Source: Escherichia coli | GTDB lineage: Bacteria > Pseudomonadota > Gammaproteobacteria > Enterobacterales > Enterobacteriaceae | Reading direction: 5' to 3' (one strand) | DNA: 64,000 bases | NCBI RefSeq assembly: GCF_003334385.1 | Contig: NZ_QOWN01000009.1 | Part shown: positions 5,205-5,653 of the stretch, one piece after another | Position numbering within the stretch: the first letter of the stretch is position 1 | How the letters are laid out: the number at the start of each line of letters is the position of its first letter | Position numbers and translations under genes: made by a program | Notes under the pieces: model-generated | The model's input: the letters and a program-made list of their open reading frames with translations, nothing else | The model's database searches: none | Told to the model about the DNA's origin: nothing

Positions 5205-5403
5205 AATTATAATAAATATTATTGTTGAGTGTTATATTATTATTCCTGTGTGATACATTGAGCAAAGACGCGTTCATCTTCGTCAAAGATATTATTAAAT
5301 GCTGGTTTTGAAAAAAGTTCATCGGATAAGATATAGTCACGAAATAAGTATCTGCTAATATTTTATGATTTCTTTTTCAGAACGTCGAACGGGATTTTCT
5401 TAT

Positions 5404-5559
5404 TTAAGATATCAGAATCTTATGATTCGGGTAAAATTCTAAATAAATCAACATGTCATTAAAATCATCATAGCCATTAGCTATTTCGGCTAAAATAGAG
5501 ACTACATGTCTTCGGTCCATCTCACTTAAGGAGTGTAGTTCCGTTGTAAGTTTTTCCAT
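5404..5559 (-). CDS. possible 51-aa small protein (MEKLTTELHSLSEMDRRHVVSILAEIANGYDDFNDMLIYLEFYPNHKILIS)
   Basis: Hand-translated ORF below the 60-aa cutoff of the ORF track, in the AT-rich gap between yrhB and yrhA; no clear Shine-Dalgarno; it may correspond to the small gene annotated near here in K-12 (yrhD), but I cannot verify that. Confidence 0.3.
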   Translation of the reverse strand: MEKLTTELHSLSEMDRRHVVSILAEIANGYDDFNDMLIYLEFYPNHKILIS

Positions 5560-5653
5560 AGCTTGCACTGCTAAATTTCGAACAAGGAATTTTCTGCTGG
5601 TAATCTCTAAAAAGATGGCATGGTTTACAATGATTTTTGTTTCCTTTTGATTA

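Follow-up and report, generated by a model that had tools for sequence, protein, structure and literature searches.

The closest described counterpart of the yhhZ-yrhA genes of Escherichia coli is the Hcp-ET1/ETI1 system, in which an Hcp N-terminus is fused to an HNH DNase and the immunity gene lies immediately downstream. According to those parts of the literature in which the original work is summarised, the Hcp-ET1 of O104:H4 C227-11, 55989 and STEC004 acts as an HNH DNase; T6SS2 delivers it, and ETI1, the product of the gene directly downstream, neutralises it (Ma et al. 2017, cited in PMC6730261, PMC6099711 and bioRxiv 2024.03.05.583533). YhhZ itself has been described as an "evolved Hcp" with a "degenerate HNH" domain (PMC2907695), and it has been assigned to a separate His-Me finger group (PMC5714182).

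The second gene of this locus is interrupted in K-12, and the presence of IS1E inside yrhA is a documented feature of this lineage (PMC12428005). In MG1655 the 768-bp element (insA6/insB6; NC_000913 3583428-3584195) follows nucleotide 390 of 495, i.e., codon 130 of yrhA; the gene (b3443) is accordingly a pseudogene, with fragments at 3583038-3583427 and 3584205-3584309, and in its interrupted form it would encode 130 native and eight IS1-encoded residues.

Here we describe the same locus in a 64-kb stretch of E. coli DNA, referred to below as the window (Table 1). The gene order yhhZ-yrhA-yrhD-yrhB-ggt is common to the window and to the MG1655 locus b3442-b3446 (NC_000913 3581863-3585043), the YhhZ, YrhD and YrhB proteins are identical in both, and at the DNA level the identity amounts to 99.93-99.96% over the 64 kb. 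However, MG1655 has IS1E, two copies of the target and yrhA in two fragments, whereas the window has no IS1E, one copy of the target and the whole gene.

Table 1. Coordinates in the window of the genes, sites and sequence differences considered in this work
Feature	Position	Strand	Description
ggt	3113-4882	plus	from the ORF list
ggt terminator hairpin	4890-4913
yrhB	4920-5204	minus	94 aa; of the polymorphic-toxin immunity family Imm35
low-GC islet	~4920-7500		yhhZ-yrhA-yrhD-yrhB, between ggt and yhhY; 31-35% GC, flanks ~51-55%
yrhB-yrhA spacer	5205-5653		449 bp
yrhD	5404-5559	minus	51 aa, within the spacer; the ORF list also gives a 54-aa start (5404-5568)
yrhA	5654-6148	minus	continuous 164-codon ORF (ORF list)
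yrhA codon 141	5727		T in the window
IS1E target site	5759-5767	minus	single GACATTAAA copy (minus-strand reading)
yhhZ	6145-7323	minus	392 aa; annotated tssD in RefSeq
RyhB small RNA	8199-8263	plus	between yhhX and yhhY, as in MG1655 (Rfam RF00057, 83 bits)
glpR	28581-29339	plus	intact 252-aa ORF
extra C in glpR	28731		relative to MG1655
rtcR	29599-30909	minus	reading frame shifted; 10 bp (MG1655 3559247-3559256) are missing between 29930 and 29931
1-bp T deletion	36137		malP-malT intergenic region (MG1655 3553040), ~45 bp before the start codon of malT
private SNPs	1769, 6781, 14043, 16928, 26828, 27912, 42909, 46358, 52873, 60903, 61395		seven of the eleven are G:C to A:T transitions

The IS1E target site in yrhA

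When the whole window was compared by BLAST with MG1655 3520001-3592000, it aligned as the reverse complement of MG1655 3525176-3589962 with approx. 99.95% identity, and IS1E was the sole large difference. The alignment is formed by two collinear reverse-strand segments, window 1-5767 with MG1655 3589962-3584196 (99.93%) and window 5759-64000 with MG1655 3583427-3525176 (99.955%), which run up to either end of IS1E and share the nine window bases of the target site. The MG1655 junctions read GACATTAAA, IS1E, GACATTAAA, so that this 9-mer is present there in two copies, one on either side of the element. A search for 9-bp target-site duplications, as suggested by an earlier reading of the sequence alone (hereafter the sequence-only reading), found a single copy in the window versus two in MG1655; the target-site duplication is therefore absent from the window.

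No remnant of IS1 was detected in the whole 64-kb window with the MG1655 IS1E as query, either with megablast or with blastn at word size 7, and only chance matches of 12-23 nt were obtained. Likewise, no insA- or insB-like frames are present among the ORFs listed for positions 3000-9000. When 4880-6200 was searched for repeats, a single AT-rich 14-nt pair was obtained, but no IS-like terminal inverted repeats and no notable inverted or direct repeats that would correspond to a scar or to another element. As the sequence-only reading had stated, yrhA is a continuous ORF with a full-length product, which is identical to the YrhA of strain VR50. It differs by one residue, D141 versus G141, from the MG1655 protein rebuilt from both gene fragments; codon 141 encodes D in the window and in VR50, and G in the second MG1655 fragment, in REL606 and in 55989.

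The sequence-only reading had located the difference from K-12 in the spacer between yrhB and yrhA. Its statement that this gap of about 450 bp carries no IS1 agrees with the IS1E BLAST and the repeat search. Nevertheless, the spacer shows zero differences from MG1655 3584310-3584758, and the reference also lacks IS1 there. The statement that an IS1 copy makes yrhA a pseudogene in K-12 was right for MG1655, in which the element is IS1E, but wrong as to its placement, since the insertion lies inside yrhA, approx. 106 bp past the interval that had been singled out. Similarly, the spacer does lack IS-like ORFs and inverted repeats, but it is not gene-free because it holds yrhD.

From these results, the following sequence of events may be proposed. 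In the K-12 lineage, IS1E would have transposed into yrhA after codon 130, an insertion that would have left a second copy of the 9-bp target GACATTAAA and a shortened YrhA, while in the source strain of the window this insertion would never have happened. It is very probable that the yrhA site of the window is ancestral and was never occupied, and that the source belongs to a lineage that is very close to K-12 and VR50 and is not descended from K-12. Given that the sequence would look no different after a precise excision of IS1, the never-occupied state is favoured on the basis of parsimony and of the polarity of the SNPs that are described below.

Distribution of the empty site in complete genomes

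A probe of 200 bp centred on the empty site (window 5663-5862) was compared with the 5,426 complete genomes of E. coli in RefSeq. It was found as a contiguous match in 3,412 of them, phylogenetically distant strains such as REL606, 55989, VR50 and EcN among them, and as a split or partial match in approx. 366 more; of the complete genomes that have yrhA, about nine in ten (3,412/3,778) therefore show the IS1E-free site. An uninterrupted yrhA of 495 bp is also present in the annotated loci of REL606 (a B strain), 55989 and VR50. A second probe, 200 bp across the left yrhA/IS1E junction of MG1655, had a full-length match in 358 genomes, and this junction is absent from the window. Among the matches listed, the carriers of the junction are mostly K-12 laboratory strains, i.e., MG1655 derivatives, DH5alpha, DH1, NEB 5-alpha, TOP10, C600, J53, RR1, DHB4 and ER1709; for two listed carriers, SY3626_hybrid and WEM25, the recorded origin is not a laboratory but chicken meat and beach water, respectively. 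BW25113 gave a split match to the empty-site probe. The genome counts and the intact loci of REL606, 55989 and VR50 indicate that the empty site is the norm in the species, and that IS1E apparently marks the K-12 lineage.

These counts also bear on the possibility of an assembly artefact, in which IS1 would have been collapsed or skipped in a strain that really carries it. Short-read assembly is well known to run into difficulties at repeats like IS1; nevertheless, we regard this explanation as very improbable, given that assemblers normally break contigs at IS copies and do not normally splice them out leaving exactly one target and an intact ORF, that the same contiguous state is present in the 3,412 complete genomes, and that the SNPs flanking the site do not follow the K-12 pattern.

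The yrhA probe had no megablast match in approx. 1,650 of the 5,426 genomes, while a 1.6-kb query that includes the flanks matched 5,399. On account of this difference, the low-GC islet that contains the four genes yhhZ, yrhA, yrhD and yrhB would seem to be absent from, or divergent in, part of the E. coli genomes.

Relation of the source to K-12 and VR50

Besides IS1E, the window differs from MG1655 by 18 SNPs and three small indels over 64 kb. The nearest complete genome found is that of VR50, an asymptomatic-bacteriuria isolate (NZ_CP011134.1), which shares with the window the intact yrhA, the D141 allele and an intact glpR, and which is 100% identical to it over positions 4800-6400; among the matches listed, this degree of identity over the same region was seen only with VR50 and strain SW070919. 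The D141 allele and the identity over 4800-6400 hint at a source closest to the VR50 lineage, as far as the sequences compared can tell. VR50 was also considered as the source itself, and it was ruled out by the 17 SNPs and two indels (the 10 bp missing from rtcR and one single-base indel) that separate it from the window over 64 kb. A 24-kb query against the complete genomes returned near-matches only.

The REL606 and 55989 loci were used as outgroups for SNP polarity where they cover the sites. Eight differences are found in which MG1655 alone departs from the window and VR50, and two of these, the only ones covered by the outgroup loci, could be polarised: at positions 690 and 1925 the MG1655 alleles are derived, and the window has the ancestral base, common to VR50, REL606 and 55989. 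At 30223, 35013, 40777 and 51353 the window likewise has the VR50 allele against that of MG1655. Among the genomes compared with the outgroups, the T in codon 141 of yrhA is common only to VR50. A further 11-12 SNPs are private to the window with respect to both MG1655 and VR50; of those given in Table 1, the alleles at 1769, 6781, 14043, 16928 and 26828 are derived according to the outgroups, and the one at 6781, located in yhhZ, is synonymous. The REL606 alignment breaks at window positions ~25395-25402, between glgP and glpD, where REL606 has three extra genes (two of the PstS family and one hypothetical), and K-12, VR50 and the window have only a yzgL remnant.

As for the three small indels, glpR is frameshifted in MG1655 and annotated there as a pseudogene, and the extra C of the window corresponds to an intact gene, as it does in VR50. 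The disruption of rtcR noted by the sequence-only reading is borne out, and it is caused by a 10-bp deletion relative to MG1655 and VR50, by which the reading frame is lost after approx. residue 326 of the 532-aa activator, leaving a 436-aa ORF, the tail of which is out of frame, plus a separate remnant ORF of 202 aa. A 200-bp probe spanning the deletion matched 4,856 of the 5,426 complete genomes searched and the deletion was present in none of them; the best identity was 95.2% (200/210 bases), which implies that all the matching genomes retain the 10 bp and that, among complete genomes, the deletion is private to the source. The third indel, the loss of a T upstream of malT, also sets the window apart from MG1655 as well as from VR50, and might have an effect on the promoter or leader of malT.

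The picture that emerges from these comparisons is that of three closely related lineages, K-12, VR50 and the source, with approx. 0.03% divergence, in which IS1E would have been gained only on the K-12 branch. The ancestral bases at the two polarised SNPs, the intact glpR and the private rtcR frameshift indicate that the source is a close relative of K-12, apparently a sister lineage, and not a K-12 derivative. The sequence-only reading had proposed a K-12-like strain different from MG1655, or the state that preceded the insertion; both parts are in agreement with our results, with the precision that "K-12-like" has to be understood as a sister lineage and not as a derivative.

The same three-lineage pattern argues against two other histories of the locus. 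In the first of them, the source would be a K-12 descendant that lost IS1E by precise excision, with the restoration of yrhA. Such an event would bring the 9-bp target back to exactly one copy, which is what the window shows, and a K-12 ancestry would be in line with the 99.95% identity to MG1655. Precise excision of IS1 is rare. Against this history are the ancestral bases at 690 and 1925, the intact glpR and the private SNPs of the window, as well as the fact that IS1E is kept in all the K-12 laboratory strains among the matches listed; moreover, the transposition of IS1 is mainly replicative, and the donor copy stays in place (PMC12428005). For these reasons we consider it very unlikely that the site was emptied in this way. 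In the second, the source would be an engineered IS-free or IS1-deleted K-12, either of the MDS type or one of the delta-IS1 strains reported in PMC12428005. These strains exist and the window is nearly identical to K-12; however, deletions made with lambda-Red/FLP leave FRT scars (PMC12428005), while the site in the window is scarless and wild type. An engineered K-12 would also keep the MG1655-specific alleles that the window lacks, including the glpR frameshift, and the rtcR deletion is in no RefSeq complete genome that was matched, so that this origin appears extremely unlikely. A natural site that was never occupied by IS1E is thus the reading that we adopt in what follows.

The yhhZ-yrhA pair and its neighbourhood

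The N-terminal region of YhhZ contains an Hcp (TssD) domain, detected over residues 1-147 with TIGR03344 (118 bits versus a cutoff of 58.9, E=3.8e-34) and with the Pfam T6SS_HCP model (E=2.5e-11). Its C-terminal region shows a weak match to Pfam HNH over residues 322-343 (E=0.013) and one to Col-Pyo_DNase with E=1.9. YrhA matches the NCBIfam YrhA family NF038335 (E=6.4e-35), and no Pfam or PDB sequence match was obtained for it. The start of yrhA overlaps the stop of yhhZ by 4 nt (6145-6148), which suggests translational coupling, and yrhA has the position of an immunity gene, directly downstream of the predicted toxin gene. This order of the two genes is the same as that of Hcp-ET1/ETI1, and the proteins of 55989 from the same locus differ from those of the window by only 1 of 392 residues in YhhZ and 3 of 164 in YrhA. 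For the Hcp-ET1 orthologues delivery by T6SS2 has been reported, whereas the source strain is known here from its 64-kb sequence alone.

By analogy with these near-identical orthologues, whose roles as toxin and immunity protein are taken from the literature, the window would carry a complete Hcp-ET1/ETI1-type pair, and YrhA is presumed to be the ETI1-type immunity protein for YhhZ; we infer the correspondence from secondary sources and from the 55989 annotation. The description of yhhZ-yrhA as a pair of this type was already known. If, as we propose, the insertion never took place in the source, the yhhZ-yrhA operon would still encode both halves, i.e., the toxin and the overlapping immunity protein downstream.

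Regarding the other two genes of the islet, YrhB shows a full-length match to the Pfam model Imm35 (PF15567, E=4.6e-23, residues 5-83 against positions 1-85 of 85), and its gene carries the label "putative heat shock chaperone" in the MG1655 annotation. YrhD has the same sequence in MG1655, VR50, REL606 and 55989, and is annotated in all four; no family match was found for it in NCBIfam or Pfam. A scan of the locus for promoters and terminators gave results at the level of the shuffled background, except for the ggt terminator hairpin. A scan of 4850-8400 with Rfam detected RyhB alone, which lies outside the yrhA locus.

The empty yrhA site is an ordinary strain polymorphism that had already been documented. 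As regards provenance and strain typing, the empty site, the intact glpR and the SNP pattern point to a close natural relative of K-12 and not to K-12 itself. Likewise, the yrhA pseudogene of MG1655 can be viewed as a peculiarity of K-12, and the source keeps a complete predicted Hcp-HNH toxin/immunity pair that was partly lost in that lineage. It is possible, although rather doubtful, that the intact yrhA is functional and that the truncation by IS1E abolishes the putative immunity in K-12 while the toxin gene yhhZ is intact. If this were true, K-12 would survive with an HNH toxin and no guard against it only on account of the silencing of yhhZ or the lack of delivery of its product, and kin firing Hcp-ET1 would be able to kill it selectively; in that case yrhD and the Imm35-type yrhB could represent a small array of immunity genes, orphan ones.
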